Origin: Patescibacteria group bacterium
GTDB lineage: Bacteria > Patescibacteriota > Microgenomatia > JAADGY01
Assembly (NCBI GenBank): GCA_024277325.1
Contig: JAJRVN010000050.1
Span: 1 to 40,305, forward strand
Length of the DNA stretch: 40,305 nucleotides
Direction: 5' to 3'
The notes beneath the pieces were generated by a model. The model searched no databases. It was not told the DNA's origin and was given only the letters and a program-made list of their open reading frames with translations. Positions 4,068 through 28,143 of this stretch are shown in pieces. Position numbers and translations under genes: made by a program. The stretch's first letter is position 1; every line of letters begins with the position of its first letter.

Positions 4068-4074
4068 ATAAATT

Positions 4075-6407: not shown

Positions 6408-6426
6408 AGAGTAAAATCTGTGGGTG

Positions 6427-11770: not shown

Positions 11771-12415
11771 ATTGGAACTAAATATCTTAAGTCGTAGAGA
11801 CTTTATAATCGCCTCTAATTCCTGGCTGGCTTTGCCGGCTTGGTTGTCGCGGTTGACTATAAGATAATCAAATTCCCCAAACCGCTTCATTTCCCACACC
11901 GCCATCTTCAAATTCCAGTTTAGCCAATCGTCTTTTGGATTGCGATTTTTCAATCTTTTAACCAAAGACCCCATCGACGGCGGGGTGATAAAAACGGTAG
12001 CTGAATAAGGAAACATTTGCTTAACTTTGTCTTTGATGTTTTTGATCCCTCGAACATCCAATCGCCAAATGACATCGTGGCCAGAAGATAGGGTTTGTTC
12101 CAAGTGTTTTTTTTGACCACCGTATAGATTGCCCCGGTACTCCACCCACTCAAAAAAGGCGTCTTCGGCTATTAACTTTTCAAATTCATGCCTGGAAATA
12201 AAGTGGTAGTCTTTACCATCAACTTCTCCGGGGCGCTTGGCCCTTGTCGTCGTTGTCACAAAGTGGTTTATGTTGGGGTTGCGGGATAAGACCAAATTCA
12301 TAAGGGTGTCCTTGCCGGCTCCCGACGGGCCTGAAATCAAAACCAAAACCCCTTGATTAGATTGCCGGTCAATCCACTGGCTCAAATCTTTATTAATCGG
12401 CTCAACTGAATTCAT
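11756..12415 (-). CDS. gmk: Guanylate kinase
   Basis: LVLISGPSGAGKDTL and TTTRAKRPGEVDGKDYHFISRHEFE. The 3' end overlaps the ychF 3' end by 15 nt (convergent). Confidence 0.9.
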   Translation of the reverse strand: MNSVEPINKDLSQWIDRQSNQGVLVLISGPSGAGKDTLMNLVLSRNPNINHFVTTTTRAKRPGEVDGKDYHFISRHEFEKLIAEDAFFEWVEYRGNLYGGQKKHLEQTLSSGHDVIWRLDVRGIKNIKDKVKQMFPYSATVFITPPSMGSLVKRLKNRNPKDDWLNWNLKMAVWEMKRFGEFDYLIVNRDNQAGKASQELEAIIKSLRLKIFSSNLSAD

Positions 12416-12432
12416 GCTTAATTGTAAGGAAA

Positions 12433-12933
12433 TTAGCGGTAAAGGTCAACATCTATAAAGGTTTGGTTGTCGTAACGACTGATTATCAAGCTCCCCTGCC
12501 AAACCTTATTATCAACCAAAGCTCTAAACTTGCCCTTTTCGTTAGTTAAAACCGTTAGTTTCCATTTTTTCTTTTTCAACCACCGCTGATAAAACGAAGC
12601 TACGTCCTTAATTGAATAATTGGTATCAAATCGAACCGAGAGAGAGCTTTCTTCTATTTGGCTGGCGGCTAAAGCTATCTTGGCCCCGGGATAAACCGGA
12701 AACGAGGCCGGAAAATTCTCGGGTAGGTCGGATGAAAGTGAGGTTGTTTGGTTGTCGTCAGTATTGGTAATCAGCATCTGTCCATCGTTGGCTAAAGAAA
12801 CCCTGCCGCCAGTGACGGTTGTTAAAATCGAGTTGTATATCTGTTCAAATAGATATCTATTGTCTTTTTGTTTAAAAACAACCGCGGAAATAATAAGGCT
12901 TATGAGGCTTAGTATAATTAATTTTTTCAGCAT
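12433..12933 (-). CDS. Membrane-anchored hypothetical protein (166 aa)
   Basis: N-terminal hydrophobic anchor LIILSLISLIISAVVF. A GGGAG ribosome-binding site lies ~8 nt upstream. No family recognised. Confidence 0.6.
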   Translation of the reverse strand: MLKKLIILSLISLIISAVVFKQKDNRYLFEQIYNSILTTVTGGRVSLANDGQMLITNTDDNQTTSLSSDLPENFPASFPVYPGAKIALAASQIEESSLSVRFDTNYSIKDVASFYQRWLKKKKWKLTVLTNEKGKFRALVDNKVWQGSLIISRYDNQTFIDVDLYR

Positions 12934-12936
12934 AAG

Positions 12937-13035
12937 CTAGCTCCCAAAATTAAAAACAACTCCTATTGTTTGGCTAAAAACGAAAAAAAGTAAGGCTAGT
13001 ATGCCAAAAAGAAGAAAATAAAAACCGGCCTTCAT
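12937..13035 (-). CDS. Candidate 32-aa hydrophobic micro-protein (below the ORF-track cutoff)
   Basis: Manual translation: MKAGFYFLLFGILALLFFVFSQTIGVVFNFGS*. The stop lies 3 nt before the ATG of the 166-aa gene. A TATACT box (13042-13047) lies 6 nt upstream of its ATG. Speculative. Confidence 0.25.
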   Translation of the reverse strand: MKAGFYFLLFGILALLFFVFSQTIGVVFNFGS

Positions 13036-13131
13036 ATTTTTAGTATAAACCAGCTGTGCAGGCCAATCAATGTCGCTTTAGTTATAGGATGATAAAAAGA
13101 AGTCCCAAAAATTATGTGTTAAAATACTGGT

Positions 13132-13827
13132 ATGGCAACCGACCAAATTAATCTTGAGGTTCAAAGGAGGAACCTTCTTGGTAAGAAGGTTAAAAAACTA
13201 AGGCGCCAAGGTTATATCCCGGCTACGGTTTATGGTAAAAACTTTACTTCTGTGGCCATCCAGTTCCCAACCTCTCAAGTTAGGGTCTTAAAACAAGCCG
13301 GCGAAACCGGCATTGTTTACCTTACCCTCGACAAGCAGAAACTGCCGACGATGATAAGACATATCCAACAACACCCCGTCACCAACAAAATCCTCCATGT
13401 TGATTTTTATAAGGTCAACCTTAAAGAAAAAGTTAAGGCTCAAGTGCCGATCGAGCTTATTGGCGAGGCGCCTATCGTCAAGTCCGGCTACAATTTGGTT
13501 CAAGTCCTTCATGAGGTTGAGGTTGAGGCCCTCCCCGCCGACATTCCCGACTCTATCCAGGTTGATGTCAGTCACCTGGAAGATGAAGGCCAAGACATTA
13601 GAATTAAAGATTTGAAAATAGACACTAAAAAAACCGAGCTTATAGAAATCGATCCTGAAGAAACCATCGTCGTCATTGAAAAGCCTAAAGAAGAAGTTGA
13701 GGAAGAGCCGACCGAAGAGGTGTCCGAGGCCGAAGTCAAAGAAGATGCCGGCCAAGAGAAAAAGCTTGAAGAAAAAACCGGCGATCAGCACCAAACCGAC
13801 GACAAGTCCGATAAAAAAGACAACTAA
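13132..13827 (+). CDS. rplY: 50S ribosomal protein L25/Ctc form, with a long acidic/lysine-rich tail
   Basis: LEVQRRNLLGKKVKKLRRQGYIPATVYGK...IRHIQQHPVTNKILHVDFYKV. A TGTTAAAAT extended -10-like box (13117-13125) lies 6 nt upstream of the ATG. Confidence 0.9.
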   Translation: MATDQINLEVQRRNLLGKKVKKLRRQGYIPATVYGKNFTSVAIQFPTSQVRVLKQAGETGIVYLTLDKQKLPTMIRHIQQHPVTNKILHVDFYKVNLKEKVKAQVPIELIGEAPIVKSGYNLVQVLHEVEVEALPADIPDSIQVDVSHLEDEGQDIRIKDLKIDTKKTELIEIDPEETIVVIEKPKEEVEEEPTEEVSEAEVKEDAGQEKKLEEKTGDQHQTDDKSDKKDN

Positions 13828-13889
13828 TTTTTAAACCATTAAATCGTTTATATATCACCTTCTCAGGTAGTGTTATAATCAGAAATAAG

Positions 13890-15386
13890 ATGAGGTTAAC
13901 GATAAAAAAGGCTTTGGCTTGGTTGGTTTTTGCTCTTTTAATTACGGTTTTGGTCGGTAGGATAAACTTGGTTTCGGCTCGAGTAATTCAGTTTGGGCCC
14001 GATAGTGGCGGTGGTGGTGTTATGAGTATACCAATTGTCCAAGAATGGTCTGATTCTTGTCAAAACGGCCGGGTCAGCTTTCAAACTTTTACAGCCGGAT
14101 GTGATCAAGGTAATTCAGACAATTTATTCACCAGCTTGTACTTGGCCTTTTCCAAATCGCTTTTAAGTATGGATTACAGCGGCGAGGTTACCTCTGATGG
14201 GGCGGTTCAGAAGATGTTTTCGCTTGTAAACAACATGGCCTTAAACGAACCGCCTGTTTCTTCCGGCTATTACTTGGCCGACTTGGGTAAAAATCTAGGC
14301 TTTAACTTGGTACCGGAAACCTACGCTCAAGAAACCAATTCGGTTTTGGGTATTGGTTTTTCTGCCTTTGCCGCGGTTTTAAAGCTGTGGCGAGCCTTTG
14401 CTGATATTGCTTTTGGCTTGATGGCCATCATCTTTTTGGTTATCGGCTTTTTAATTATGTTTAGATCCAAGCTTAGCGCTCAAACCGAGATCACCATCCA
14501 GTCGGCTCTGCCCCGATTGGCGGTCACTATATTTTTGATCGCCTTCTCTTATCCCATCGCCGGTTTTATGATTGATCTTATGTATTTGGTCATTTATGCC
14601 TTTATCGGCTTTTTGGGTACCAGCCACCTGATAGATAAAACCGTGGCTTTGCAACAGGTTTTCACCAGTCACCCGTTTAATATTCTTTTAGGTAAGGGTT
14701 TTGTCAGTCGGCCAACCGACACAATCACCGACTCGGTCGGCAGCTTAGTTAGTCAGCAGTTCGGCGGCTTGGTCGGTTTTTTGGCTAATAATTTTGTCAG
14801 CAGTGCCTTCTTTATGGTTCTTTTGGTTATTTTCCTTTTGTTTATCAGTTTTAAAATCTTTATCATCCTTTTAAAGGCTTATGCTTATATATTGATGCAG
14901 GTTATCTTGGCGCCGATTTATATTCTTGGCAACGCTTTTCCGGGTAGTTCAGCTTGTTCCTCATGGTTAAAGGGTCTTATAGCTAAGCTAGCCGTCTTCC
15001 CCATCGTCATCTTCCACATCATCATAGCGGCGATTCTGGTCGGGGCGACCGGCTGGGGAGCAAGCGAAAACTTGTTCTCGGGATCAGGTTCCAGGTTGTG
15101 GTCGCCTCCGTTAATGAACTTTGGTGTCACTACGACCGGTTTTGACGGCATTCTGGCCATTGTGGCCTTGGGCATCTTGTATATGGCTCCCAACGCCGCC
15201 GAGATGGCCGAACAACTACTCAAGGGTCAATTCAATATTAACGTTGGCCAATCTATGGGTGGAGCTGTTCAACAGTTTGCCTATCCGGCCAAACAATACT
15301 GGCAAAGGCGCGAAAGGCGAAAGAGTTATGAAGAGCAAGCTAGGGCTATGGATAAGTACCGCAATCTTGAAGAGAGGTCTAAATAA
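13890..15386 (+). CDS. Polytopic membrane protein; VirB6/TrbL-like candidate (by architecture and context only)
   Basis: 498 aa: N-terminal anchor, ~130-aa extracytoplasmic segment, then at least 6-7 long hydrophobic segments and a charged C-terminal tail (RRERRKSYEEQARAMDKYRNLEERSK). Located in the T4SS-like neighbourhood. The CDS is confident; the functional call is tentative. Confidence 0.45.
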   Translation: MRLTIKKALAWLVFALLITVLVGRINLVSARVIQFGPDSGGGGVMSIPIVQEWSDSCQNGRVSFQTFTAGCDQGNSDNLFTSLYLAFSKSLLSMDYSGEVTSDGAVQKMFSLVNNMALNEPPVSSGYYLADLGKNLGFNLVPETYAQETNSVLGIGFSAFAAVLKLWRAFADIAFGLMAIIFLVIGFLIMFRSKLSAQTEITIQSALPRLAVTIFLIAFSYPIAGFMIDLMYLVIYAFIGFLGTSHLIDKTVALQQVFTSHPFNILLGKGFVSRPTDTITDSVGSLVSQQFGGLVGFLANNFVSSAFFMVLLVIFLLFISFKIFIILLKAYAYILMQVILAPIYILGNAFPGSSACSSWLKGLIAKLAVFPIVIFHIIIAAILVGATGWGASENLFSGSGSRLWSPPLMNFGVTTTGFDGILAIVALGILYMAPNAAEMAEQLLKGQFNINVGQSMGGAVQQFAYPAKQYWQRRERRKSYEEQARAMDKYRNLEERSK

Positions 15387-15391
15387 AAACC

Positions 15392-18300
15392 TTATTTGCT
15401 TCCGGCCAAACCTTCCTTCAGAGCTAAGCCTGTAACTCCCAGACCAACCAAGCCGGAAACTATTAAGAATTCCTTGAAGATGTCATCCAAATCAAAGTTA
15501 AAGCCTAACCGGTACCAATAATAATACATTCGGCCGACGTGTTTTTTGGCAATATCCCTGACCATTTTATTATCTAACATACCATCGCCCTCAACCTTAA
15601 TCAAAAAGTCCATAATGTCCCGCTTATCCAACGTGTATTTTTCTCCCAACCAACTGGTGCCATTGAGCAAAGCCATTAAAGACACGCCCTCGCCTTTAAG
15701 ATAATAGGCCATATTCAATCTGAGTCTTTGAGCCCAATCAAACTGTCTGCTGTTATATACATCTCTTAGTGTGGTGGTCGCCACTACCGGCTGGCCGGTT
15801 AGCGGGTCGATACATTTAATTTGGCCGGTTTCATAAACCGGCAAACCTCTCTCATCTATCAACTGTTCACCTATCGGCAGTTTAAACGGCTTATCCCATT
15901 CGACCGGGTCGCTGTGGAACGGTGACCAGGGGCGCCTGGCTCTGTGGGCTTTGTACCAAGTAATCAAAAGGTCAACCAGCGGCTTCATAACCATGCGGAC
16001 GACGTCGGCCCCCAAGGTTGTTCCTTTTAGGATGCCAAAAATTTCATACAGGGTATCGCGGCTTGGCCGGCTGCTGAACCTAAACATCTGGTTACTAACC
16101 TTTTCCATAGCCACGGCATAGCGCATGAAATCAAAATAGTCGTTAAAGCCGAAGCCAATATCATACAAAGCCGTCGCCACCTCGTTATTTCTGATATTGC
16201 CGATGAACCGGTTCGACCACTTGGCCATAATGGTTCGCAAAACCAACAAGCCTTGTTTCCGCCTGTCTATCTCGGCTTGGTTACTGCCTAAGTGATCATA
16301 GTTGTTAGCATTAATCTTACCGTGGAGCATTCTTTCTAGTTGTTGGGTTTTTCTTCTGTTAAAACCTAAGAAAGTGTATAGGCCGTTATCTCCATATTTT
16401 TGTTCTTCGGTTAAATCGCCTAATTTATCCAAGACTAGTTTGATAGCCTCGGCTTTTTCGGGATCGTCAAAAAAACCGGTCAAGCCTTGTTTGTCCGGAT
16501 CTCTGTCTTGTTTGGCGTGCCAAACCCACTCGCTGCTATCATCACTCACACCGCCATCTTGTTCGATCCCTCCATAACCTAGCACCCTGACATCGCCAAC
16601 GGTTCTTAAGATAGGGTTGTCCTGGTGGTCTTCAAAAAATACGCATTGCAGGCCTCGGCGCAGTTTTTTTGCTTCAGAACTACTTAAATTAGGAATACCA
16701 AAAAAATCAACCAAGATTTTATCGAATACAGCTAAATCACCCTTGAGAATTCGAGACGGCGGCGGAGCTATTTGTTCCATTAAAATCCCGTCAACCCCGC
16801 CGACCGGGCCGCCATATTTGGTAATGTAGTGGCGGAAGGCTAAAATGGCTTTAACCTTATCTTTAGGATAGCCTTCATAATAACCTTTAAGGGCGTTGTA
16901 GTAACCGCCGGTAATTATCATCCACGAAACTGCCCCCATGCTCATAAACCTAAGTTGAGATCTGGCCCCATAATCAAGCGAATTATAATCTATGCCTTTA
17001 TCTTTTAAGACTTGCTTAATTACCCCCAATCTGATCTCTTCGATTTTTTCTATGTTTTCTTCATAAACGTATAACTCTACGTTTTTGGGAGTTAGGTTGT
17101 TTTTTTTATACTCTTCATAATCGCTTCCTGCCACGTCTTTCAGGTTGGCGGGGTACATCTCCCAAGCATCAATAAAATCGGCTAAAAAAAGATCTTGGTT
17201 AGCTACCTCTATTTTGCTTTTTTGCATAGCGTTTATTTCTCTTTCGTCAACCAGCGACCGTTGGTGAAAAAGTTGTTCGTAGCTTGATTTTAAAGTTCTT
17301 CTTTCCATCTCCATCATTCTCAAGAAGCCTCTGGTGGAAAGGCTGTCTCTTAACGGTAGGAGGTTGATTAATATGAGAATGTATTGTTGGTCAATTGACG
17401 GCAAGCTCTTGTTTTCTTCGCCCGGCCTCATAGACTCGGCTAAAAGGCGGCGGCTGGCATCGGCAAAAAAATTGTTCTGCAAAAGAGAAATAACTTTTTG
17501 CACTCTCTCTTTTGCCCCATCAGACAAGCTGTCTAAATCATAGTCGTAAAGATAAACCAAGGCTTTTATCTGATGATATTTCATAAGTTCTTCATCTTTG
17601 TTGTCAGGGTGATTGTACCTAATAGAATAAGCACTGTTGATAACCTGGCTCATTTTATCGACTATCTCGCGGGCTATTGGATCATCGGCATTAAGGATTT
17701 CTTGGTTTAATTTGCCATAAACCCTGGATACGTCTATTGAGTGGTTAAGTAGATCAACAAAAACCCGGCTTGGGTCATACGAAAAAAACCGATTATCAAA
17801 CCCTCTCTCAGCTTGGCGAGCCATAAATTGAGTCATGGCCGCTTCATAACTTTTAGATTGGGGATCGATTTGAGCCGGCGGTCTTAACTCGGGCATCGGT
17901 GAAATAATATCATCAACCTGGTGTTGCAGGCTGGCATGAATCTCAAAAATATGATGGAACCAATTAATCACGTCTCGGCTTAAGCTTAGCCGCTCAGCTA
18001 CCCGGCCGATAACCGTGCTTATCCTACCTTCGTCCAACAACTCAACCAACTCTTCTGATTCATCTTGGCCAAAGCCACGATCTATCAAAAGTTCCAGAAT
18101 GCTTTTGTAAGTTTTGGTTATTTGACTTAGTTTTTGGACGGTTTTAACTTGCTCCAAAACCATAACCATCTTTTCCAGCTTGCCGATCTCTTTTTCTAAA
18201 GACTGATACTCGGCTGTGTCCGGAGTTAATCCTCGAAGTTTGGCCTGCTTTTTAGCCAGGTCACCTTTAACTTCTGACAACCTAACCAAACCTTTTTGCT

Positions 18301-19633
18301 TTCTTATCTCACCAACGATACCGGCTAGAGTGTCTGTGTCGGGGTGTAAGCCAAGGTCTCGACTATCTTCGGATACAAGCAGGCTAAAGACTATTAATTT
18401 TTGCAGCTGTGGTGTTGCCAGCCGGCGGTCTTTAAGGTGGCCGGCCAGTTCGTTAAATATTTTACGGCCAAGAGCTGACAACTCTTCATTTGCTTTAATT
18501 TCAAGCCAAGAGCGCGGCCTGTCAACAGCTGATATCTGGCTCAGTTGGTTTTTTATCTGCTCGGCGGCCTCGCCGGGTGGAGGCGTTTCTGTTTCAACCA
18601 AGCCTGGTCGGCTTGGCTTAACTTTGTCAACAAACTCCTCTTTGATAACGTCAATAAAAACCGCTTGTTGTGGCTCAAGTTTGACTACTTGTAAACCTAT
18701 TTCGGTAGCATACTTAGTCAGCCAGTGGTCAATTTGTTGCCTTTCCTTATCACTCAACAGGGTTAAAAGGGTTGTAAAAAATGATCGGGCCCTCTCTTGG
18801 CGAACATCCGCGGCGACTGTTTCGTCTTCCATTGATTCAAATTGTTCAAACAAGTTATTATCAGCTTCAAGCTTGTCGATTAATATCTTGGGCAGCCCCG
18901 GCCGAGTCTTGATATCAACCAAGAGGTCAAGAATCAAATTGAGGTCTGTCTGTTGGTGTCGAGTCAGAACTTCTAATATTATATATTTATCGCTGTCGGG
19001 CCAATTAGAATCATCTGTTAAAAACTCATAAAAACTATCAATCACTTCTTGGTTGAGATTAACTTGGCCACTAGCTCCAACATCTATTGTGGGGCTGTCC
19101 GGGTGAGGCAGGTTCCTGTTGTACAGGTCAATAATTTGGCGATTGGCTGGATCAATCACTACTCGAATCAATTTTTCTTTTTCTTGCTTTTTGGCTCTCT
19201 TGGCCAAAAAACCAGGATACCAATTAAGCAGATCCGATACACGACTGTTAACACTGTTGTTTAACATGACTTGATCACCACCCTCAAGATCGGTTGTGAG
19301 CAAATTAAAAAGCCGCCTGGTTTGGGGAATGTCTTGTTGGAGAGACTCTATCAACCGATAATTACTTGCGGTTATATATATTTTTAAAATAAACCAAACA
19401 TCCTTAAATTTGTCATGTTTGGCCGCCCATTTTAAAAGGTCAACTAGGGCCCGCCTGGCTTCACCTTTTTTATACTCTTGCTCTTTGGGGATAAAATCCT
19501 TAACCTCGTTAATCGCTTGCAAACTGCCGGCGACAACTCCAGCTTCGGGGTTGGTAGAAATTTTGTCTGTTTCCGGCCTTAAGGCTTCGTTAATATATTT
19601 TTTGAGCGGGTAATTAACTTCAACTGATGTCAT
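15392..19633 (-). CDS. Giant orphan protein (1413 aa), predicted cytoplasmic with a single C-terminal tail anchor
   Basis: Uninterrupted 4.2-kb ORF. No N-terminal signal. One hydrophobic stretch (FLIVSGLVGLGVTGLAL) ~10 residues from the C-terminus. A manual scan found no P-loop (GxxxxGK[ST]) and no HExxH. TATAAT (19642-19647, minus strand) lies 8 nt upstream of the ATG. Confidence 0.7.
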   Translation of the reverse strand: MTSVEVNYPLKKYINEALRPETDKISTNPEAGVVAGSLQAINEVKDFIPKEQEYKKGEARRALVDLLKWAAKHDKFKDVWFILKIYITASNYRLIESLQQDIPQTRRLFNLLTTDLEGGDQVMLNNSVNSRVSDLLNWYPGFLAKRAKKQEKEKLIRVVIDPANRQIIDLYNRNLPHPDSPTIDVGASGQVNLNQEVIDSFYEFLTDDSNWPDSDKYIILEVLTRHQQTDLNLILDLLVDIKTRPGLPKILIDKLEADNNLFEQFESMEDETVAADVRQERARSFFTTLLTLLSDKERQQIDHWLTKYATEIGLQVVKLEPQQAVFIDVIKEEFVDKVKPSRPGLVETETPPPGEAAEQIKNQLSQISAVDRPRSWLEIKANEELSALGRKIFNELAGHLKDRRLATPQLQKLIVFSLLVSEDSRDLGLHPDTDTLAGIVGEIRKQKGLVRLSEVKGDLAKKQAKLRGLTPDTAEYQSLEKEIGKLEKMVMVLEQVKTVQKLSQITKTYKSILELLIDRGFGQDESEELVELLDEGRISTVIGRVAERLSLSRDVINWFHHIFEIHASLQHQVDDIISPMPELRPPAQIDPQSKSYEAAMTQFMARQAERGFDNRFFSYDPSRVFVDLLNHSIDVSRVYGKLNQEILNADDPIAREIVDKMSQVINSAYSIRYNHPDNKDEELMKYHQIKALVYLYDYDLDSLSDGAKERVQKVISLLQNNFFADASRRLLAESMRPGEENKSLPSIDQQYILILINLLPLRDSLSTRGFLRMMEMERRTLKSSYEQLFHQRSLVDEREINAMQKSKIEVANQDLFLADFIDAWEMYPANLKDVAGSDYEEYKKNNLTPKNVELYVYEENIEKIEEIRLGVIKQVLKDKGIDYNSLDYGARSQLRFMSMGAVSWMIITGGYYNALKGYYEGYPKDKVKAILAFRHYITKYGGPVGGVDGILMEQIAPPPSRILKGDLAVFDKILVDFFGIPNLSSSEAKKLRRGLQCVFFEDHQDNPILRTVGDVRVLGYGGIEQDGGVSDDSSEWVWHAKQDRDPDKQGLTGFFDDPEKAEAIKLVLDKLGDLTEEQKYGDNGLYTFLGFNRRKTQQLERMLHGKINANNYDHLGSNQAEIDRRKQGLLVLRTIMAKWSNRFIGNIRNNEVATALYDIGFGFNDYFDFMRYAVAMEKVSNQMFRFSSRPSRDTLYEIFGILKGTTLGADVVRMVMKPLVDLLITWYKAHRARRPWSPFHSDPVEWDKPFKLPIGEQLIDERGLPVYETGQIKCIDPLTGQPVVATTTLRDVYNSRQFDWAQRLRLNMAYYLKGEGVSLMALLNGTSWLGEKYTLDKRDIMDFLIKVEGDGMLDNKMVRDIAKKHVGRMYYYWYRLGFNFDLDDIFKEFLIVSGLVGLGVTGLALKEGLAGSK

Positions 19634-19829: not shown

Positions 19830-22800
19830 ATGGCTGAATTCTCAACCGCTCGACCCAAGGTTTTAGAACCATTCAAACATGCTTGTTGGCGACAAAAACA
19901 GACCATAGACGACTGGCTTGAGTGTTTAAATAAGTTGCTTTTTATCATCGAGGCCGAGATCAATGATTTCAAATTAACCATCGTCTTTCAAAAAGAGAAA
20001 AAACAAACTACCCTTAAAAAAAGCGCCCGGCCGGTTTTAATCAAAAGCTTTGTTAGGTTTCTGCACCGATCGTTTGCCAACCGACTGCCTTTTGTCGTGA
20101 CTCCGCCACCGGTCGTTGATCGTGATCAAGATTTATCCATAAGCCAACTTGATAGTTTATCCAGTTTGGTCCAGGAAGTTTTGGTCATCTTATACCGAGC
20201 CTCCTTTCTGGCCCACCTGGCTGAAGAAAGAATGTCTTTGGCCGACATCTTGGCGGCGGTGCCGGATTTACCCGCTATTGATTCGGGTTTGATAAATAAA
20301 ATAATCAGCGATTATAAGCTTGCCATCGATAACCAGCTTGCCGGTGGCGATAACGCCCCCAGCCAATTGGTCGATACTACTAACTTTAAAATCAATCTTT
20401 CGCCCGACCAGTCCGACCGCGTCGTTTGGGACAAGCCTATCTTAAAACAAGATGACCAAGGTAACTCTATCCTGGACATTCCGCCACTGTCCAGCCAAGA
20501 TTTTGGTCACTTGGTGCGCTTATCCCAAAACCTCGAGCAATCGCTTAAGGCAACTATCTTGATCGATGGGATCGGCCTGTCAGGCCCTCCCACTTCCCCA
20601 GAAGAAACCACCTTGTTTAAACTAGCTGGCAGTATCAGTCAAAAAATCTCAAGCCGGGTTTTGTCTGAGGTCATCTCCTCGGGAACAAGCTGGGTAGATC
20701 CTGATTTTATTTCCAGCCGCATAGCTCAAGAAACAATTAGAGAATTAACCTGGCATTTTAAGCAAGATGGTTTAAATAAGTTAAGTAATCAAGGTTGGTT
20801 GGTTTTAAGGAGTTCTTTTAAAAAACATCCGGAGGTTTTATTTTCTCGATTTGAAGCTGCTATTCAAAAAACCATTGTCCCTAAAGCACCGACCGAGGCC
20901 GGCCCAGCCCCAACCGGGCCAAGCCCCGCCCCGCCACCAGCCCAAATCGGCGAATTTCCATTGACGGAAACGGACCGGGGTGGGGAGCTAACCCACCAGG
21001 CCGCTATAGAAGACAATATTGTTGGCTTGCGAGTTTTGGCCAAGGCGGCCCGATTAACCAAGGCGGCTCCAACCAACCCAAAGGACGTTAAACAGATTAT
21101 CAGGCGGCAGGTTTATTCCCAGTTAGTCCAGGCGGCCCGATTAACAAAAGAGAGTAGTTTGGATAAACCTCAGCTTGAGGCTTTGGAAAGAGTGGCTGAC
21201 AAAGCCGCCAACTATCTGGTTTATATCAGTCCGGCCGATCCTGTACTTAACCTTAGACCAAAACAAGCGTACTTGGAATTAATCAGCCAAGAACCTGTGT
21301 TACAAGACATAATTTCTCCGGAAAAGATCGAATCGACCATTGAATTGGTCGGTGACATTAACCGCAAAACCCTAACCTCAAGCGCTGCGCCGATGATAAG
21401 ATCTGCCGCAAAACTGGGCCTTGTTGAACAAATCCTTATGCGCCGGGTTATAAGCAAGCACTATCAGTCAATCATTAATAGCGGAACTGATCCCACCGCT
21501 CTTTATATTGGCTTGTCAACCCCATTAGAAACGCTTCAGGGGCGATTGGATTGGATCGGTGGAGGTTCGCCTATTAACATATTAGGCCTTTCTATACCAA
21601 CGGCTCCGGCATTAACCGAGGCTGACCCCGGCTTTGCCAGGCTCAAGTCTTTAACTCAACAGATTGCCGAACTTAACCGACGAGGAATCTTGGACGACTC
21701 AGACCTTCCTCTTATCATCAGATGGCTCAGGTTAAAAAACAGAATGCGCCAGTCTTATGACGATAAAAAGAAAGCTGTCAAAAATATCATCCCCCACAAC
21801 ACAACCATTATTTTGAATAAGGTTAAAAAGAAGGTTGGCGGCTCGACTGTGGTCCAAAAGATCTTGGACATCTACCAACATCCTTTTGTTGAAAAAATCG
21901 TTGGCGATGCGACTGATTTCCTGTCTGTCCCCAGAAAGACATTGGCTGAGAAAATCAACTTTCATCTTACAAACAAATCTGGCTGGCTGCAAAAGAAGAT
22001 AGAGACCAAGCTCGAAGCTGACAAGACTTCGTTCTTTCGGATCTTTGATACGTCTGAACCTTTTAAAAAACGATTAAAACTCTTTTTTAAGGGAGAAAAT
22101 GGTTGGTTTAAGGTCCACATTGTCGATCCTAGTTTAAAAAAACACGGTGACAGCTCGGTTTTTGCCTTGGGCCAGCGCGGCCTAAACTGGCTCCAAGAAA
22201 GATGGCAGGGGGTCAAAAAAAGCAAAGCCTATAAGTTGGGTTTAAAGGTTAAAAAAAAGATTTTAGCCTGGCAAAAAAAATTCAAAAAAGTTAAAGACCA
22301 AATCAATAAGATTATCGGCAGGGTAGAAAAATACATCGAGCTTTTATCACCCAAGAACCTGTTAAGGAAAGCGCTTGTTACCACTATAAGGCGACTTGGC
22401 CAGTTGTCGGTCAAGTTATTAGCCAAGCTTGGCGTTAAGGTTTCTTTGTCGGCGACCGGGGTCGGCACTGTCGTAGCCATCGCCATGTTGGCTGTTGATT
22501 TTTTCAGCTTGTTTAAAAAACACTGGCAAGAAATACTCTCGGTCCTGATCGGATTGCTGTGGTATCTATTGTCTAATCTGGCTGCTTTTATCGGCGCCGT
22601 GGTCGGGGCCGGCCTCTTCTCGGTTATTGCCCCCTTTTTAGGCCCGGCAGCTCCGGTTATCGGCGGTTATCTTGGTTGGCAAGTTGGCAGCGGTATCGGC
22701 AATTTAATCAGTGCTGTCAAGTCATTTTTTAAAGGCCTTAGTAACTGGTCGTCCTCTATTGGTTCTGGAGCCGGGGTCGGTCCGGGAACCGCCATTGGTG

Positions 22801-23960
22801 TCGGGGTCGGGGCTGGGACCGCTTCTTTAATTTTGGTAAACGCCATCATCAGTCCGGCCTTTTTACTTCCTGGCGAATACCAAAACACGCCGGGGTCCAA
22901 ATATATTAAGGTTTACAAGATAGCCGAAGTCAATGATGTCTATAAAAAAACCGCCGGCCCGTCATACCCTATGCAGCTAGCCAATTTGGCCGCTGAACGC
23001 TCGATTAAAATTTCATACAAAGTCATCATCGCCGCGGTTGACCGGCCGGTAACCATCAACCAGGTTCAAGATAAAATTACCATTTACACCAAAGATGGCG
23101 ATCAGGTTAAGACAACAAACCAAACCATCGAGCTTGTCTTGGCCAACACCAATCAAAAACCAGATACCCCAATCGAGATTGCTACCGAAAACCCGGTTGA
23201 GCTAGTTGGTAGTTTTAGGCTGGGGCCAAAGTATAAAGACAGTCGGTTGCTTAATCAAGTGGATGTCGGCGGCTTGGTTGATGGCAATCAGGAATCCAAG
23301 TCCGACGTCTTTGAGGTCTTGGTCGGCGACGCCCCTAAAAGCAGTTGCTCTCAAACGGCCGCTAGGTCGCAAGTTTTAACCGAAAAACTCTATCGTTGTG
23401 AGGCGGGCGCTCCCCCAAGCCAGGCCCCCAACTGCTACTGTCCAACAACTAATCAGCGAGGTTATTACACCGACACTTTTCATTGTGGCCAAAAACCACC
23501 CTTTGCCAACTATCTTCACTCGGCTGACCCAACCGTCGAAGATATCGAAGATAATTATGTTCAGTGCACCGAATTTGTCCACCAAGCCTTTGAGGATGTC
23601 TTCGGCCAATCCACTAACGCTATTTGCAGCAAGGGTTCGCCTGGCGGGTTTTTGGGCCATGCCGGCCAATGGCTGTCAAGGGCGTCGCGTTTTTGCCCCG
23701 ACCAGTTCGACATCATCCAAAACAACGGCACAAGCGACCCTATGCCTGGAGATATTTTAGTTTTTTCCGGTGGCAACGAATACGGCCACGTGGCTATAGT
23801 CAGCCTTGATGGCAGCGACCCGACTGGCAATGTTGTTCGTTTTTGTGGGGCCAACACACCGAAAAAATGTTATAACATTGCTAAGGGGCAGGTTTGGCAA
23901 AGCCCGTTTAACAGCTTAAAATTAGTGGGGTGGTTAAGGTATAAGTTTTGCCAGCAATAG
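19830..23960 (+). CDS. Giant membrane protein (1376 aa) with a C-terminal CHAP-family peptidoglycan hydrolase domain
   Basis: ~850-aa signal-less N-terminal region with a Pro-rich linker (PKAPTEAGPAPTGPSPAPPPAQ). Lys-rich segment. Gly-rich multi-helix hydrophobic block (~nt 22440-22870). C-terminal CHAP motifs: YVQCTEFVHQAF (Cys codon 23565-23567) and PGDILVFSGGNEYGHVAIV (His codon 23787-23789). Confidence 0.75.
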   Translation: MAEFSTARPKVLEPFKHACWRQKQTIDDWLECLNKLLFIIEAEINDFKLTIVFQKEKKQTTLKKSARPVLIKSFVRFLHRSFANRLPFVVTPPPVVDRDQDLSISQLDSLSSLVQEVLVILYRASFLAHLAEERMSLADILAAVPDLPAIDSGLINKIISDYKLAIDNQLAGGDNAPSQLVDTTNFKINLSPDQSDRVVWDKPILKQDDQGNSILDIPPLSSQDFGHLVRLSQNLEQSLKATILIDGIGLSGPPTSPEETTLFKLAGSISQKISSRVLSEVISSGTSWVDPDFISSRIAQETIRELTWHFKQDGLNKLSNQGWLVLRSSFKKHPEVLFSRFEAAIQKTIVPKAPTEAGPAPTGPSPAPPPAQIGEFPLTETDRGGELTHQAAIEDNIVGLRVLAKAARLTKAAPTNPKDVKQIIRRQVYSQLVQAARLTKESSLDKPQLEALERVADKAANYLVYISPADPVLNLRPKQAYLELISQEPVLQDIISPEKIESTIELVGDINRKTLTSSAAPMIRSAAKLGLVEQILMRRVISKHYQSIINSGTDPTALYIGLSTPLETLQGRLDWIGGGSPINILGLSIPTAPALTEADPGFARLKSLTQQIAELNRRGILDDSDLPLIIRWLRLKNRMRQSYDDKKKAVKNIIPHNTTIILNKVKKKVGGSTVVQKILDIYQHPFVEKIVGDATDFLSVPRKTLAEKINFHLTNKSGWLQKKIETKLEADKTSFFRIFDTSEPFKKRLKLFFKGENGWFKVHIVDPSLKKHGDSSVFALGQRGLNWLQERWQGVKKSKAYKLGLKVKKKILAWQKKFKKVKDQINKIIGRVEKYIELLSPKNLLRKALVTTIRRLGQLSVKLLAKLGVKVSLSATGVGTVVAIAMLAVDFFSLFKKHWQEILSVLIGLLWYLLSNLAAFIGAVVGAGLFSVIAPFLGPAAPVIGGYLGWQVGSGIGNLISAVKSFFKGLSNWSSSIGSGAGVGPGTAIGVGVGAGTASLILVNAIISPAFLLPGEYQNTPGSKYIKVYKIAEVNDVYKKTAGPSYPMQLANLAAERSIKISYKVIIAAVDRPVTINQVQDKITIYTKDGDQVKTTNQTIELVLANTNQKPDTPIEIATENPVELVGSFRLGPKYKDSRLLNQVDVGGLVDGNQESKSDVFEVLVGDAPKSSCSQTAARSQVLTEKLYRCEAGAPPSQAPNCYCPTTNQRGYYTDTFHCGQKPPFANYLHSADPTVEDIEDNYVQCTEFVHQAFEDVFGQSTNAICSKGSPGGFLGHAGQWLSRASRFCPDQFDIIQNNGTSDPMPGDILVFSGGNEYGHVAIVSLDGSDPTGNVVRFCGANTPKKCYNIAKGQVWQSPFNSLKLVGWLRYKFCQQ

Positions 23961-23969: not shown

Positions 23970-24566
23970 ATGACAATTAAAAAAAAATTAATTATCGGCC
24001 TTATTAGCTTGATTGTTTTGATTTTTGGTCTTTGGTGGCGATATTCTTATAACCAACCCCGAATCGTTGATTACTTTCCCAGTCGGGGAGTTGGTCTGTT
24101 TGATTTTGTCAGAGTTGAGTTTTCTCGTCCCATATCAGCCAAGATGGTTCGCCTTGAGGTCAGACCGCCATTGAAGATAAGTGTCAAACAACAAGCCGCG
24201 GCTAACACCATTAGGTGGCGGGTCATTGGCTTGCCAAAAGAAAAAACAACCTACAACTTCAGTGTTTTTTATAAAAACAAGCTTATTAAGACTTGGCAAA
24301 TGACGCCTCCCCCAGGATCGACCGGGGTCGGTATTTATCCGGTCGGGTTTGAAAAAGGGTTGGAAGATTATGTTAAAAGAACGCCGATATTGCAAAACAT
24401 ACCAACCAACAATCCTTATTTTAGGGTTAAGTATTATTCTGAATCTTATTTAGCCATCTATCTTTTGGGTCAAGATAAAAACAGGTCGATGGCCGAGGCC
24501 AAAAGGTGGCTTGATAGCTTGCCGGGGGGGTCGCGCACCAACCTCAAAATCGATTGGGTTAAATAA
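23970..24566 (+). CDS. Bitopic membrane protein with an Ig-like (SbsA/Big_5-like) ectodomain; function unknown
   Basis: N-terminal transmembrane segment LIIGLISLIVLIFGLWW. The pattern FPSRGVGLFDFVRVEFSRPISAKMVRLEVRPPL...TTYNFSVFY resembles bacterial Ig-like surface domains. An AGGA ribosome-binding site overlaps the upstream stop. Confidence 0.5.
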   Translation: MTIKKKLIIGLISLIVLIFGLWWRYSYNQPRIVDYFPSRGVGLFDFVRVEFSRPISAKMVRLEVRPPLKISVKQQAAANTIRWRVIGLPKEKTTYNFSVFYKNKLIKTWQMTPPPGSTGVGIYPVGFEKGLEDYVKRTPILQNIPTNNPYFRVKYYSESYLAIYLLGQDKNRSMAEAKRWLDSLPGGSRTNLKIDWVK

Positions 24567-24607: not shown

Positions 24608-25597
24608 ATGCCAGTTAAAGAGCACCCGGTTCCGCAAAATATTACCAGCTACCGCTTTAGGTTGGTGGGTAGCATGACCCTACAGCAATTCTCCGAATTG
24701 GCTGGTGGTTTTGGGTTGGGTTTTATTCTTTGGAAGCTGCCGATTTACCCCATCATCAAGATGCCTTTGGCTGTTGCGGCCGCAGTTTTAGGGATAATGA
24801 TGGCCTTTGTTCCCATAGAGGATCGGCCACTTGATATGTGGTTAACCGCGTTTGTCAAGCATATTTATAGGCCAACTTTGTACTTGTTTAAGACCAGGCC
24901 GACCCCACCGCCTTTTTCTCTTTATCAACCACCAAAAAACAGCGGTCAGAAAAATGACCTTGATGGTGTGAAGGCCATTGACCCTAATCAATATCTAAGC
25001 TCGTTTACTACTAACAAAACCTCTCCTGTCACCGACTATGTCAATCGCTTATTTGATGAGGAAAAAGTCAAGCCTGTTAAAAGTCGAGCCAAACAAGTGC
25101 AACCATTGGCAAAGCCCATTGTTAAGAAACTGCCGATCTCTCCGATTACACCCAGTACCCCAACTAATCAAATCAAGGCCATTAAGTCGAGGCCGATTAT
25201 GCCAAAGACAAAAACAATCAAAACAGCAGCCGGGCCGGGCCGGTTTAAGGCTAAGAGGGTTAAAAAACCGGTGGTAGCTCAAAAACCAACCTTCGAGCCC
25301 AGCCTACCAAAGACCAAGCTTAAAAACACGCCTGTGGGCATGGTGGCTGACCTCGCCGGCAAACCGATCGTCGGCGCCATCGTTGAGGTTAAAAACGTTA
25401 AGTCCGACATTCCTTTAAGGGTGACAAAAACCAACATCTTGGGACAGTTCTTTTTTGGTAATCCCCTGCCGACCGGGGAATATTTAATAGAAGCTGAGCA
25501 CGCAGCTTATGCCTTTAAACCTGTCAAGATAAGTGTTAAAAACAAGGTTATTTTACCGATCAAGATCACCGGCCAAAAACAGGTGGAAAATGTATAA
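24608..25597 (+). CDS. PrgI-family (VirB3-like) membrane protein fused to a Lys/Pro-rich linker and a carboxypeptidase-regulatory-like beta-sandwich
   Basis: The N-terminus VPQNITSYRFRLVGSMTLQQFSELAGGFGLGFILWKL...MMAFVPIEDRPLDMWLTAFVKHIYRPTLYLF follows the PrgI/TcpE-type pattern. The C-terminus GMVADLAGKPIVGAIVEVKNVKSDIPLRVTKTNILGQFFFGNPLPTGEYLIEAEHAAYAFKPVKISV is CarboxypepD_reg-like. Confidence 0.6.
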   Translation: MPVKEHPVPQNITSYRFRLVGSMTLQQFSELAGGFGLGFILWKLPIYPIIKMPLAVAAAVLGIMMAFVPIEDRPLDMWLTAFVKHIYRPTLYLFKTRPTPPPFSLYQPPKNSGQKNDLDGVKAIDPNQYLSSFTTNKTSPVTDYVNRLFDEEKVKPVKSRAKQVQPLAKPIVKKLPISPITPSTPTNQIKAIKSRPIMPKTKTIKTAAGPGRFKAKRVKKPVVAQKPTFEPSLPKTKLKNTPVGMVADLAGKPIVGAIVEVKNVKSDIPLRVTKTNILGQFFFGNPLPTGEYLIEAEHAAYAFKPVKISVKNKVILPIKITGQKQVENV

Positions 25598-25605: not shown

Positions 25606-26316
25606 ATGACAAACCCAAAATCAATTGCTATCATCGGTCGCACCCAAGATGTCATCCATGTTAAAAACGTTGTTGATAACTTGGCGGTACTTAAGGACAA
25701 CACCTGTGTTCTTATTTTGGAAGTCGGCGCCATCAACTTCGACCTTCTGTCCGAAGAAGAGCAAGAAACCATTATCTTTGCCTATTCGGGTCTGTTAAAT
25801 TCCCTTTCTTTCCCTGTCCAAATCTATACCCGATCACAAAAGAAAGACTTGTCCAATTACCTGGTTTTTCTTGATTCAAAGATCAAAACCGTGAATAATC
25901 AGATTCTCAAAAAAAGGCTTTTGGACTATAAAAACTTCGTTTACCGCCTGGTAAAGGAAAAAAACGTCCTAACCAAAAAGTTTTACCTTATTATTTCCTA
26001 TAAATATTTCTCACCTCAAGTTGTCCCGACTAAATTTAATTTATTCGACTTGTTTTCCGGTAAAAAAAACAAACCAGCCAACTCGATTCCAGCCGAAAAA
26101 ATCGTCGAGCGAGCCAAAAACCACCTCATCCCTAAAAGAGACCATTTAATAAGGCAGTTATCAAGGATCGGCCTGCCCTCAAGACAACTAAGCTCTTCTG
26201 AAATCGTCAAGCTTTTCCACCACATCTATAACCCCGACCATCCGCTCAAGGTTATCAGTAGTCAAGAATACCTGACTACGTTGGTCAGCACCTCGAAAAA
26301 ACCAGGCCTTAGCTAG
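25606..26316 (+). CDS. Hypothetical protein (236 aa), possibly related to the pre-ATPase N-terminal region of VirB4/TraC-class proteins
   Basis: No P-loop. DVIHVKNVVDNLAVLKDNTCVLILEVGAINFDLLSEEEQETIIFAYSGLLNSLSFPVQIYTRSQKKDLSNYL loosely parallels the N-terminal region of the convergent VirB4-like protein. The similarity is weak and judged by eye. Confidence 0.4.
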   Translation: MTNPKSIAIIGRTQDVIHVKNVVDNLAVLKDNTCVLILEVGAINFDLLSEEEQETIIFAYSGLLNSLSFPVQIYTRSQKKDLSNYLVFLDSKIKTVNNQILKKRLLDYKNFVYRLVKEKNVLTKKFYLIISYKYFSPQVVPTKFNLFDLFSGKKNKPANSIPAEKIVERAKNHLIPKRDHLIRQLSRIGLPSRQLSSSEIVKLFHHIYNPDHPLKVISSQEYLTTLVSTSKKPGLS

Positions 26317-26325: not shown

Positions 26326-28143
26326 TTATTGTTTTGCTTCTTGTTTTTGTTTGAGTATCTCTTTGGGTTTCGTGGTTATGATTTTGTGCTCTTCGGGGGA
26401 AGCAACTATTTTTATGGCCACATGGTTAGAGCCGGCAAAAAAGATACCTTCGCCGATCCCGGCCGAAAGCAATAACTTCCTTTCCCCTCTGGATAAATAG
26501 AAGGTTTTTGCTATCTTGTCAATTGCCGGCGGCGATTGCTTCATTAGTAGTTGAATGGCTGAGTTATTAATTATCGACGATCCGTAAGCTGAACCTAAAA
26601 AGTCCTCGACATCTTGGGTTATGGTGGTCACTCCCAGGTAATACTTCCTTGCTCGCTTGGTGATCGATCTTAAAAACCGGGCCGATCCGGCGTATTGCAT
26701 CAAGTACCAGGCCTCATCAACAACCAACAGCCTCTTTTTAAACCGCTTCCTAACCTCGTTCCAAATAAAGTCCAAGATTATAAACATGGCTGCTGGGCGC
26801 AACTCGTCCTCAACCCCTCTTATGGAAAAAACCGTCAGCGGCGACGACATGTCGATGTTTGACGGAGCGTTAAAGATGTCGGCCAAGCCGCCCTTAATAA
26901 ACCTCTCCATTCTCAATCCAAGCTTTCGGCCGGTCTCGGTTTCGTAACCGATTAAAACCTTGTAAAGATCTTCCATTAATGGAGGTTTTTTACTCTGACT
27001 GGTTGGGTCGGGGGTTATGCCGTAGGATTTATAGGTCCTAACAATGGCTCGGTCAATCAGGGCAGACTCTTCTGGTGACAACTTGCCCATGATCACCTCC
27101 ATTAGCGAGTGTAAAAACATCACTTTTTGACCCAAAACATCCTCGTCCTCAATTTTATTAACTGATAAATCAAATGGGTTGATTTTGTTCACTGAGTTTT
27201 TAGAGAAGTCAAAGTAATTACCTTGGTTTACTTGGGAAAGCAGCTTGTATTCATCTTCGGGATCGATGATAATCACGCTCGTATCCAAAAGCAAAGACCT
27301 TAAAACCTCGAGTTTGACCGCGTAAGACTTGCCGGCGCCAGATGTGGCAAAAACCGTCATATTGGCATTTTCCAAGGAAAAGCGATCAAAAATAACTAGT
27401 GACTCATTGTGTTCGTTAATCCCGTACATAACCCCCTTGTCATCAGAAAGCTCTGATGAGGTAAACGGAAAGGTGGTCGCTAGTGAGGTTGTGTCCATGT
27501 TTCTTTTAATGTCTAAAATGTCTTTGCCTATGGGGATAGTCGTGTTAAAACCATCAAACATTTGTAAGGTCGCCCGTTTAGCCACTACCATAATCGAGCC
27601 GAGTGTTGAGATCACCTGTTCCGAAACCACCTTAAGCTCTTTAAGGTTTTGGGCATAAACCGTGATGTATAAGCCAAATAAGAAAAACCTCTCCATGCCT
27701 TTAACTAGCTGTTCTTGTAATGAGCGGGCGTCTTCTAATTTTGCTTGCGTCCCCGGATCGACCGCTTTACCCCGTTGTAGATTGTTGGTTATTTCTGCCT
27801 CCATTTCGGCAATCTTCCGCCTCAGGTCGTCTAAAACAGCCCTGCCTTCGACCGGTTGGATATGCATGCTGACGTCGATTGTGTGTTGAAAGTTAATCAG
27901 CGGTATCAACCAGTTCGAGGAAACGTATCTTGGGTACCCAGAAACGAACAGGACTTGGGCATAAACACCGCCGATCTTGAGGTAATTAAAGTCTTCTTCT
28001 ATGGCCGGCGGGGCAATAACGTCTTGAAGGTCAACAACCCCTTTGGCCAACGCCTGCATCACTTGTCGCCGACTGTCTTCGCCGACTTGGTCAACTACTT
28101 TCTTCGGCTTGTTTTTTGACTTAAAAAACAAAGGCAACTTCAT
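26326..28143 (-). CDS. virB4: VirB4/TrbE-class type IV secretion ATPase
   Basis: 605 aa. Walker A VFATSGAGKSYAVK (~27322-27345); Walker B LLVVDEAWYLM (~26706-26735); C-terminal TQDVEDF and FFAGSNHVAIKIVASPEE motifs typical of VirB4-like/DUF87 ATPases. Confidence 0.85.
   Translation of the reverse strand: MKLPLFFKSKNKPKKVVDQVGEDSRRQVMQALAKGVVDLQDVIAPPAIEEDFNYLKIGGVYAQVLFVSGYPRYVSSNWLIPLINFQHTIDVSMHIQPVEGRAVLDDLRRKIAEMEAEITNNLQRGKAVDPGTQAKLEDARSLQEQLVKGMERFFLFGLYITVYAQNLKELKVVSEQVISTLGSIMVVAKRATLQMFDGFNTTIPIGKDILDIKRNMDTTSLATTFPFTSSELSDDKGVMYGINEHNESLVIFDRFSLENANMTVFATSGAGKSYAVKLEVLRSLLLDTSVIIIDPEDEYKLLSQVNQGNYFDFSKNSVNKINPFDLSVNKIEDEDVLGQKVMFLHSLMEVIMGKLSPEESALIDRAIVRTYKSYGITPDPTSQSKKPPLMEDLYKVLIGYETETGRKLGLRMERFIKGGLADIFNAPSNIDMSSPLTVFSIRGVEDELRPAAMFIILDFIWNEVRKRFKKRLLVVDEAWYLMQYAGSARFLRSITKRARKYYLGVTTITQDVEDFLGSAYGSSIINNSAIQLLMKQSPPAIDKIAKTFYLSRGERKLLLSAGIGEGIFFAGSNHVAIKIVASPEEHKIITTKPKEILKQKQEAKQ

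Follow-up and report, generated by a model that had tools for sequence, protein, structure and literature searches.

What is a 1376-amino-acid (aa) protein that ends in a CHAP domain doing among the genes of a type IV secretion system (T4SS) in a Microgenomatia bacterium? The question is raised by contig JAJRVN010000050.1 of the Patescibacteria group bacterium assembly GCA_024277325.1, which was analyzed over 40,305 nucleotides (nt), referred to here as the window. Judging from its domains, relatives and neighbors, the protein is probably a PrgK/TraG-like wall hydrolase that is tethered in the membrane and takes the VirB1 role in a chromosomal Microgenomates T4SS. What is new here is most likely an enlarged variant of a known hydrolase design, with a much larger orphan cytoplasmic part and a multi-helix Gly-rich anchor. 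Where they bear on it, the results are compared with an earlier interpretation of the same DNA made from its letters alone, called the sequence-only reading. The coordinates of the features are given in Table 1.

A rare family with a CHAP head and a Gly-rich anchor

The protein is encoded by one open reading frame (ORF) on the forward strand (19830..23960), with the span and the length of 1376 aa that had been read earlier, and a GAGG lies 11 nt 5' of its ATG. An exhaustive phmmer search with aa 1-1200 against 1.84 billion representative proteins found five relatives: three full-length proteins (1230-1346 aa), one fragment and one 787-aa protein, P0006, whose overlap with the 1376-aa protein is limited to the cationic stretch, the transmembrane (TM) block and the mid domain. 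Two further full-length copies came from a scan of GTDB species genomes, so that the full-length homologues comprise P0002-P0004 and the ORFs at loci L002 and L004. Pairwise, the six full-length proteins are 25-31% identical from end to end, apart from three closer pairs at 52-80%, and all regions of the 1376-aa protein are common to them. Since full-length homologues carry the whole architecture, the ORF is not a gene-calling artefact. The protein is real, conserved and very rare.

Several other searches were conducted for homologues. A word-indexed search with the full-length protein returned the query alone (its candidate list was probably saturated), and a profile search with the mid domain yielded the fragment, P0005, alone. 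No homologues came from the first metagenome scan, and the second gave generic small CHAP proteins only, for example a 350-aa protein in L011. There was no tblastn match for aa 700-1240 among plasmid records and none at E<0.1 for the CHAP region among 72,556 plasmids.

Profile and alignment both show a genuine CHAP domain, with its Cys/His pair, at the C-terminus. Pfam CHAP (PF05257) matched aa 1243-1326 with E=1.5e-10 (41.8 bits vs a cutoff of 26), which is above the gathering score and confirms the CHAP assignment of the sequence-only reading. All four aligned family members match Pfam CHAP, the best with E=2.8e-13. Cys1246 in YVQCTEFV (23565-23567) and His1320 in YGHVAIV (23787-23789) have their codons exactly where that reading had placed them, and both residues are invariant in the family alignment. 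When the family profile was aligned with LytN and lysin L2, 'YiqCtefv' fell onto 'wQCfdlv' and 'yGHvgiv' onto 'YGHTAIV', while the alignment with LysK covers the His-side stretch only. The CHAP domain of PrgK also aligned with the profile (hhalign probability 82.7%, E=9.5e-6). Careful alignment thus kept the Cys and the His against LytN, lysin L2 and PrgK alike. Near the third position of the triad, N1334 and N1342 (the latter at 23853-23855) are invariant, and the Pfam match ends at profile position 68 of 81; N1342 is a likely candidate for the third polar residue of the CHAP triad. CHAP domains are amidases or endopeptidases.

The route from the N-terminus to this head begins with a long soluble region. 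A hydropathy scan found aa 1-866 to be without any hydrophobic stretch, and the protein therefore has no signal peptide; this agrees with the signal-less region of about 850 aa described earlier. The AlphaFold2 (AF2) model of aa 1-870 is wholly helical with a low mean predicted local distance difference test score (pLDDT, 52.8), its best part being aa ~420-640 (70-85). Foldseek found no structural neighbor of this model in the PDB (best E=0.28), and profile searches of PDB sequences and Pfam gave no match to the N-terminal part. The N-terminal ~865 aa are classed as an orphan because they are without Pfam, PDB-sequence or Foldseek matches; the sequence-only reading had likewise left the fold unassigned. 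No relation was found between this region and the neighboring 1413-aa protein. The region directly before the membrane, where a Lys-rich patch had been noted, is cationic in all homologues, with 8-10 Lys and Arg within the last 40-45 residues.

The hydrophobic block that follows is Gly-rich and multi-helical, as had been described. It contains 16.6% Gly and several hydrophobic segments, of which four are firm (about aa 871-893, 902-922, 923-945 and 988-1013) and one, the Gly-zipper segment 946-966, is marginal. GxxxG occurs 10 times in aa 866-1016 compared to 3.9±1.7 times in shuffles (p about 0.001). AF2 was uninformative on this block (pLDDT 20-47 in a model of aa 836-1376 from a six-row alignment). 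The number of spans determines the side on which CHAP would lie: four would put it on the side of the N-terminus, and five, or three with a peripheral first segment, would put it outside. Hessa-scale energies and positive-inside counts over six homologues did not separate the 3-, 4- and 5-span models. The loop after the first segment is short, conserved and cationic (F-[KR]-[KR]-x-W-K-E), which mildly favors the three-span model.

The stalk provides further evidence on this point. The protein has eight non-catalytic conserved Cys, all of them in its last 204 residues, and just two of its 13 Cys fall in the first 1172. Foldseek matched the spacer to Ig-like beta-sandwiches, among them the N-terminal domain of GH123 (E=5e-6) and adhesin repeat domains, and the spacer is homologous to a module in P0006 and in a 719-aa protein of locus L026 (L026_719). 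In P0006, the C-terminal head is a Peptidase_M23. The invariant Cys cluster, the Ig-like beta-sandwich and the replacement of CHAP by the wall peptidase M23 in a relative suggest that CHAP lies outside the cell.

The T4SS locus and the prgK slot

The window is chromosomal and oriC-proximal, near dnaA. Its first part holds mevalonate-pathway genes, uppS, a SpoIID-like gene, two T4SS_pilin genes, ychF, gmk and rplY. The middle part holds a 498-aa polytopic gene, a 1413-aa orphan on the minus strand, the gene of the 1376-aa protein, a 198-aa gene, a PrgI/VirB3-like gene and a TrsD-like gene, and the end part holds virB4 (CD1110 type, minus strand), dnaN, dnaA, yidC and jag. From the 1376-aa gene to the TrsD-like gene, the four genes form a co-oriented, tightly spaced, operon-like run that converges on virB4. 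No relaxase or coupling protein was found in the 40,305-nt window. The sequence-only reading had proposed a VirB1-equivalent hydrolase of a Gram-positive-type conjugation system. The T4SS neighbors and the homologues in the prgK slot described below support the hydrolase part of this proposal; the conjugation part does not hold, since the locus is chromosomal and has neither relaxase nor coupling protein. The locus is a chromosomal T4SS beside dnaA and not a conjugation system. Its layout fits the origin-proximal, MPF_FATA-related T4SS published for Patescibacteria (PMC12102498), and the TrsD-like gene marks the pGO1 subclass (PMC12102498; PMC12857230).

The gene of the 1376-aa protein is closely coupled to the 198-aa gene. 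A gap of 9 nt separates the stop at 23960 from the next start at 23970, an AGGA overlaps the stop codon, and the two genes overlap in L001 and L004. The spacing here and the overlap elsewhere suggest co-translation and a physical partnership of the two proteins. The 198-aa protein is conserved at 33-40% identity (37% to the L004 copy). It resembles VirB8-like PrgL in position and architecture, and it has no sequence similarity to PrgL, to the 193-aa protein of L026 or to any PDB chain.

The same neighbors accompany the family elsewhere. In L001, which carries the homologue P0002, the gene order is identical to that of the window, and L004 and L008 carry pilins, PrgI, the hydrolase gene and the 198-aa gene. 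In the lineage of P0004 and L004, the PrgI-like and 198-aa genes flank the hydrolase gene, with pilins and a large orphan nearby. A PrgI-like gene adjoins the family member in every lineage examined.

Wider Microgenomates loci were reached through the homologues of the 498-aa protein. They follow a recurrent plan of a pilin array, a large Cys-rich secreted protein, a polytopic protein of ~500-600 aa, a large minus-strand protein and the T4SS core. The genes of L024 and L026 run from PrgI through TraC-like/TrsD and VirB4 to a protein of 719-750 aa, a bitopic protein of 182-193 aa and dnaN. The order in pCF10 is prgI, prgJ (VirB4), prgK (the hydrolase, 871 aa) and prgL (VirB8-like, 208 aa, bitopic), and the 719-750-aa proteins thus stand in the slot of prgK. 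In them, a cytoplasmic part of 260-330 aa and a stretch rich in Lys are followed by a TM block rich in Gly, a beta-sandwich and a linker that contains Cys. The profile of the 1376-aa family matched L026_719 over the beta-sandwich and linker (hhalign 96.9%, E=1.8e-10), and P0006 matched it by BLASTP over the cationic stretch, TM block and beta-sandwich (E=9e-9). In the slot of the 1376-aa protein, L023 has a 1022-aa protein (11047-14115) with M23 and a possible CHAP-like C-terminus, and L022 has a 939-aa protein of similar layout with a Cys-rich 'QC...GH' C-terminus. When these two were aligned with the 1376-aa protein, hhalign probabilities were 30-74% in short stretches, and neither BLAST nor HMM searches gave a match, which is at most suggestive of homology. 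According to these comparisons, the conserved element is an anchor-stalk scaffold, made up of the cationic stretch, Gly-zipper anchor, beta-sandwich and Cys linker. The enzyme head appears to be interchangeable on it, because homologues of this core end in CHAP, M23 or HExxH.

The heads of the L024 and L026 proteins carry the motifs 'AHESAH' and 'THEASH' and have no Pfam match, and L026_719 has no match among PDB sequences. The HExxH head may be an uncharacterised metallopeptidase.

Among known systems, PrgK of Enterococcus faecalis pCF10 (DELTA class, MPF_FATA) is likewise encoded beside prgI and prgJ and followed by a bitopic protein of ~200 aa. It shares with the 1376-aa protein a Lys-rich cytoplasmic N-domain, a membrane anchor and a C-terminal CHAP, which in PrgK is the last of several extracellular domains. 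PrgK differs in having one TM segment, a cytoplasmic part of 244 aa, and a LytM and a muramidase domain before CHAP. In contrast, the 1376-aa protein has ~865 cytoplasmic aa, a 150-aa multi-helix Gly-zipper block and a beta-sandwich spacer, it has neither glycosidase nor LytM, and its locus is a chromosomal, non-conjugative T4SS. TraG (pIP501) and TrsG (pGO1) of the ALPHA class, with SLT and CHAP, are also membrane-anchored T4SS wall hydrolases with C-terminal CHAP. They were likened to it by architecture, and they differ in that their intracellular part is short, their TM segment is single and an SLT domain is present. A similar layout is that of the patescibacterial prgK-slot proteins (L026_719, the 750-aa protein of L024, P0006 and the 1022-aa protein of L023), which lie in T4SS loci and have the same order of cytoplasmic part, Lys-rich stretch, TM block, beta-sandwich, Cys linker and head; their heads are HExxH (by motif only), M23, or M23 with a CHAP-like part, and their N-domains of 260-450 aa are unrelated. 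Every known VirB1 homologue of Gram-positive systems is anchored in the membrane and has its enzyme domains outside the cell (PMC12857230).

Based on these likenesses, the following mechanism is proposed. The N-terminal ~865 aa would remain in the cytoplasm, and the Gly-zipper helices, in three or five spans, would anchor the protein and probably oligomerize at the inner-membrane platform of the T4SS. The beta-sandwich and a disulfide-stabilized linker would hold the CHAP amidase or endopeptidase a few nanometres above the membrane. There, CHAP would act locally on the peptidoglycan of its own cell, cut the peptide stems or cross-links and open a passage for the channel and a VirB2-like pilus. 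The giant cytoplasmic domain would probably dock to, or regulate via, the VirB4/TrsD platform or the 1413-aa orphan. A coupling of cytoplasmic events to wall cleavage, as the sequence-only reading had envisaged, would be plausible within this scheme.

In the single species tested, the epibiotic way of life requires the Patescibacteria T4SS (PMC12857230, PMC12102498). This secretion system may serve to exchange nutrients or signals with host bacteria. A 2025 survey found that VirB1-like hydrolases were rarely linked to virB4 and that VirB6 and VirB8 were nearly undetectable in Microgenomatia (PMC12102498). The locus and its synteny provide a concrete candidate for the hydrolase slot of a system whose parts are poorly mapped, and they define a modular scaffold with swappable CHAP, M23 or HExxH heads. 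They also flag three recurrent unannotated partners, namely a bitopic protein of ~190-200 aa, a polytopic protein of ~500 aa and a cytoplasmic orphan of >1100 aa, which can be tested as candidates for the VirB8-, VirB6- and platform-like components that are still missing.

Weighing the alternatives

Several observations weigh against a VirB1-like hydrolase. In the CHAP domain itself, Ser or Gly replaces the acidic third residue that is common in CHAP triads. No lytic transglycosylase or muramidase was found when the four family members were searched against Pfam at E<=1, which returned CHAP only. The domain of PrgK that actively cuts the wall is its muramidase, with a presumed regulatory role for CHAP (PMC12857230). 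Beyond CHAP, hhalign detected no similarity to PrgK, so that the comparison with PrgK suggested earlier succeeded for the CHAP domain and failed for the rest of the protein. In L002 and L004, virB4 is not within the flanks covered. Finally, the four firm hydrophobic segments alone would place CHAP on the cytoplasmic side, with the N-terminus, and the outward orientation requires either the fifth, marginal span or a peripheral first segment. As to the lack of a glycosidase, Orf14-type (BETA) VirB1-like members are also without a glycan-cleaving domain (PMC12857230), and such a domain is thus not universal in VirB1-like hydrolases.

A bolder interpretation goes beyond a tethered hydrolase. The conserved zipper bundle and the ~865-aa domain would form an integral part of an ATPase-coupled conduit and assume VirB6/VirB8-type or coupling functions that are not recognizable in Microgenomatia, or the interchangeable head would breach the wall of the host when the epibiont attaches. 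This is unlikely. If true, one polypeptide would link cytoplasmic energy or substrate input, a membrane channel and the penetration of a wall or host envelope.

The protein could be a weapon directed at the host, with the CHAP head, tethered or released, attacking host peptidoglycan at the contact between epibiont and host to open a conduit for feeding or transfer, and the 198-aa protein serving as an immunity or control factor. Patescibacteria need their T4SS for growing as epibionts rather than for conjugation (PMC12857230, PMC12102498), and the window has no relaxase or coupling protein. The heads are swapped among relatives (CHAP, M23, HExxH) in the manner of polymorphic effectors, and a gene for a small extracytoplasmic partner is tightly coupled. 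However, the stalk is short, consisting of one beta-sandwich of ~150 aa and a linker of ~70 aa, and the multi-helix anchor is retained; the reach therefore fits the cell's own wall. The 198-aa partner occupies the position of PrgL in pCF10, and no cleavage or release site was identified. A host-directed role is compatible with all of the observations, and we consider it quite unlikely.

Another possibility is a translocon with a dual function, in which the Gly-zipper helices form a VirB6-like part of the channel and the giant domain takes input from substrates or an ATPase. VirB6 homologues are scarce in Microgenomatia (PMC12102498). The GxxxGxxxGxG motif is conserved, GxxxG is enriched, and the TM block is conserved across the CHAP, M23 and HExxH variants. 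Against this, no Pfam TrbL/VirB6 match was found at E<=1, and hhalign against PrgH gave a probability of 0.1%. These null results give no support to a VirB6/PrgH-like channel identity. The suggestion of the sequence-only reading that the protein might itself form part of the channel is likewise unsupported, since it lacks similarity to PrgH and VirB6 and the separate 498-aa polytopic protein in Microgenomates T4SS loci fits the VirB6 architecture better. A role in the channel is distinctly improbable.

A general hydrolase for wall remodeling or division, under cytoplasmic control as in FtsEX-PcsB, would make the T4SS genes incidental neighbors. Its CHAP domain is distantly similar to that of PcsB, a regulatory role could fall to the large cytoplasmic domain, the neighbors include other wall enzymes (SpoIID, VanW), and virB4 is not near the L002 and L004 copies. 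Nevertheless, the PrgI-like gene is adjacent in every lineage, homologues of the core module lie directly after virB4 in L024 and L026, and the family, with 5 relatives among 1.84 billion representatives, is too rare for housekeeping. This rarity and the fixed neighbors make a T4SS-independent housekeeping role very improbable.

A four-span protein with a cytoplasmic CHAP amidase acting on a non-wall substrate, like the glutathionylspermidine (Gsp) amidase branch, is hardly credible: the four firm segments and weak profile matches to Gsp amidase (E=0.03) would agree with it, but eight conserved Cys cluster in the last 204 aa, relatives bear an M23 head of a kind that acts on the wall, the Ig-like beta-sandwich resembles domains of surface proteins, and the closest solved CHAP domains are those of wall hydrolases.

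Phage tape-measure proteins were also considered, as they likewise combine a long helical N-terminal part with a hydrophobic block rich in Gly and, at the C-terminus, a wall hydrolase. The likeness was rejected as compositional. PHROG matches had E about 1e-3 and involved one of six family members per PHROG, there was no tblastn match in 50,697 phage records and no tape-measure-like fold in BFVD, and the genomic context consists of T4SS and housekeeping genes next to dnaA rather than a prophage.

Neighboring genes and feature coordinates

The features of the 1376-aa protein, its neighbors and the related proteins in the prgK slot are listed in Table 1.

Table 1. Positions of the features discussed; positions are those of the window unless another locus is named
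Feature	Position (nt)	Strand	Basis or remark
498-aa polytopic protein	13890-15386	+	N-terminal hydrophobic segment and about 6-7 further TM-like segments; no Pfam match
1413-aa orphan	15392..19633	-	Divergent from the 1376-aa gene; C-terminal hydrophobic tail only (aa 1385-1403)
All-alpha orphan region, aa 1-640	19830..21749	+	AF2 all-helical; no TM segment or signal peptide; presumably cytoplasmic
Conserved N-terminal motif, aa 19-41: C19..W29..C32-x-N34..L37-F38..E41	19884..19952	+	Columns invariant in four-sequence alignment
Pro-rich insert, about aa 353-399	20886..21026	+	Lineage-specific; only the window protein has it in the family alignment
Two AARLTK copies, aa 406-411 and 435-440	21036..21148	+	26-nt direct repeat
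Lys/Trp-rich juxtamembrane region, aa 641-865	21750..22424	+	18.7% Lys; net charge +32
Gly-rich hydrophobic (TM) block, aa 866-1016	22425..22877	+	Hydropathy and Hessa-scale scans
Glycine zipper G945-xxx-G949-xxx-G953-x-G955	22662..22694	+	Gly columns invariant in family alignment
Beta-sandwich (Ig-like) spacer, about aa 1025-1170	22902..23339	+	AF2 pLDDT 70-85, all-beta
Cys-rich linker, aa 1171-1240	23340..23549	+	C1173, C1190, C1202, C1204 and C1219 invariant in family alignment
CHAP domain, aa 1241-1376	23550..23957	+	Pfam match; AF2 pLDDT 84-90; alignment to solved CHAP domains
198-aa bitopic partner, TM aa 1-26	23970..24566	+	Holds the position of PrgL (VirB8-like)
PrgI/VirB3-like, C-terminal CarboxypepD_reg beta-sandwich	24608..25597	+	Pfam PrgI 28.5 bits (cutoff 27); CarboxypepD_reg
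TrsD-like (VirB4 N-terminal domain-like)	25606..26316	+	NCBIfam TrsD and VirB4 N-terminal matches
VirB4 ATPase, CD1110 type	26326..28143	-	NCBIfam conju_CD1110, E=1.6e-119, above cutoff
prgK-slot protein of L026 (719 aa)	L026 17711-19870		HExxH head
prgK-slot protein of L024 (750 aa)	L024 16828-19080		HExxH head

Two features that the sequence-only reading had picked out in the N-terminal region were located and appear to be particular to the window protein. The Pro-rich linker reaches 36% Pro over aa 351-375. The internal AARLTK repeat was traced to repeat family D3, a pair of 26-nt direct repeats (21036-21061 and 21123-21148) that are 85% identical, and the family alignment shows that it is not kept in homologues.

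The 1413-aa orphan had no match in Pfam, NCBIfam, PHROG or the PDB. Its homologues adjoin members of the 1376-aa family in L001, L004 and L008. At its position, more distant T4SS loci encode on the minus strand a protein that is large (525-1161 aa), poor in Cys and without TM segments. Homology between these proteins, that of L022 included, and the 1413-aa orphan is not detectable.

The 498-aa polytopic protein has 37 homologues in Microgenomates/Patescibacteria. They lie inside the T4SS locus in L008 and L022-L026 and away from T4SS genes in L006, and in L022, L023, L024 and L026 the homologue is located 3' of the pilin genes and immediately precedes the large gene on the minus strand. Comparisons with PrgH and with PDB chains found no similarity, and there was no sequence tie to VirB6. 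The protein is a candidate for the 'missing' VirB6 of Microgenomatia.

In the core genes, the window's PrgI/VirB3-like protein is long (329 aa vs 117 aa in pCF10), with an extended Lys/Pro-rich linker before CarboxypepD_reg, and this extended form is conserved in L001, L004, L008, L022 and L026. The TrsD-like protein is 43% identical to its L022 equivalent. The TrsD-like gene and virB4 are convergent in the window and L001, and they are co-directional and adjacent in L022, L024 and L026. From these differences in gene order, virB4 appears to have been inverted and the hydrolase pair moved upstream of prgI in the lineage of the window.

A SpoIID-domain protein with an N-terminal TM segment adjoins the pilin genes in the window (6424-8229, plus strand), in L024 (3130-4797) and in L026 (1265-2983). 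SpoIID is a glycan-strand-cleaving family. The SpoIID-like protein may make up for the glycosidase activity missing from the CHAP-only hydrolase.

The two T4SS_pilin-domain proteins of the window (8799-9905 and 9953-10660, plus strand) are unusually long (368 and 235 aa) and carry the pilin domain C-terminally; the arrayed pilins of related loci have ~100-130 aa. The large Cys-rich proteins (18-33 Cys) of the related loci lie between the pilin array and the polytopic gene (L022 7122-9458, L023 1355-5083, L024 7797-9974 and L026 8023-9921) and are without Pfam annotation. Three of the four have an N-terminal hydrophobic segment, and none was found in the 632-aa protein of L026. They may be components of a pilus tip or adhesins, and no equivalent was identified in the window. 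At the start of the window (1015-5202, plus strand), a mevalonate run of an FMN-dependent dehydrogenase/IDI-2-like gene, GHMP kinases and diphosphomevalonate decarboxylase is followed by uppS, and mevalonate genes adjoin the pilin array in L022 as well.

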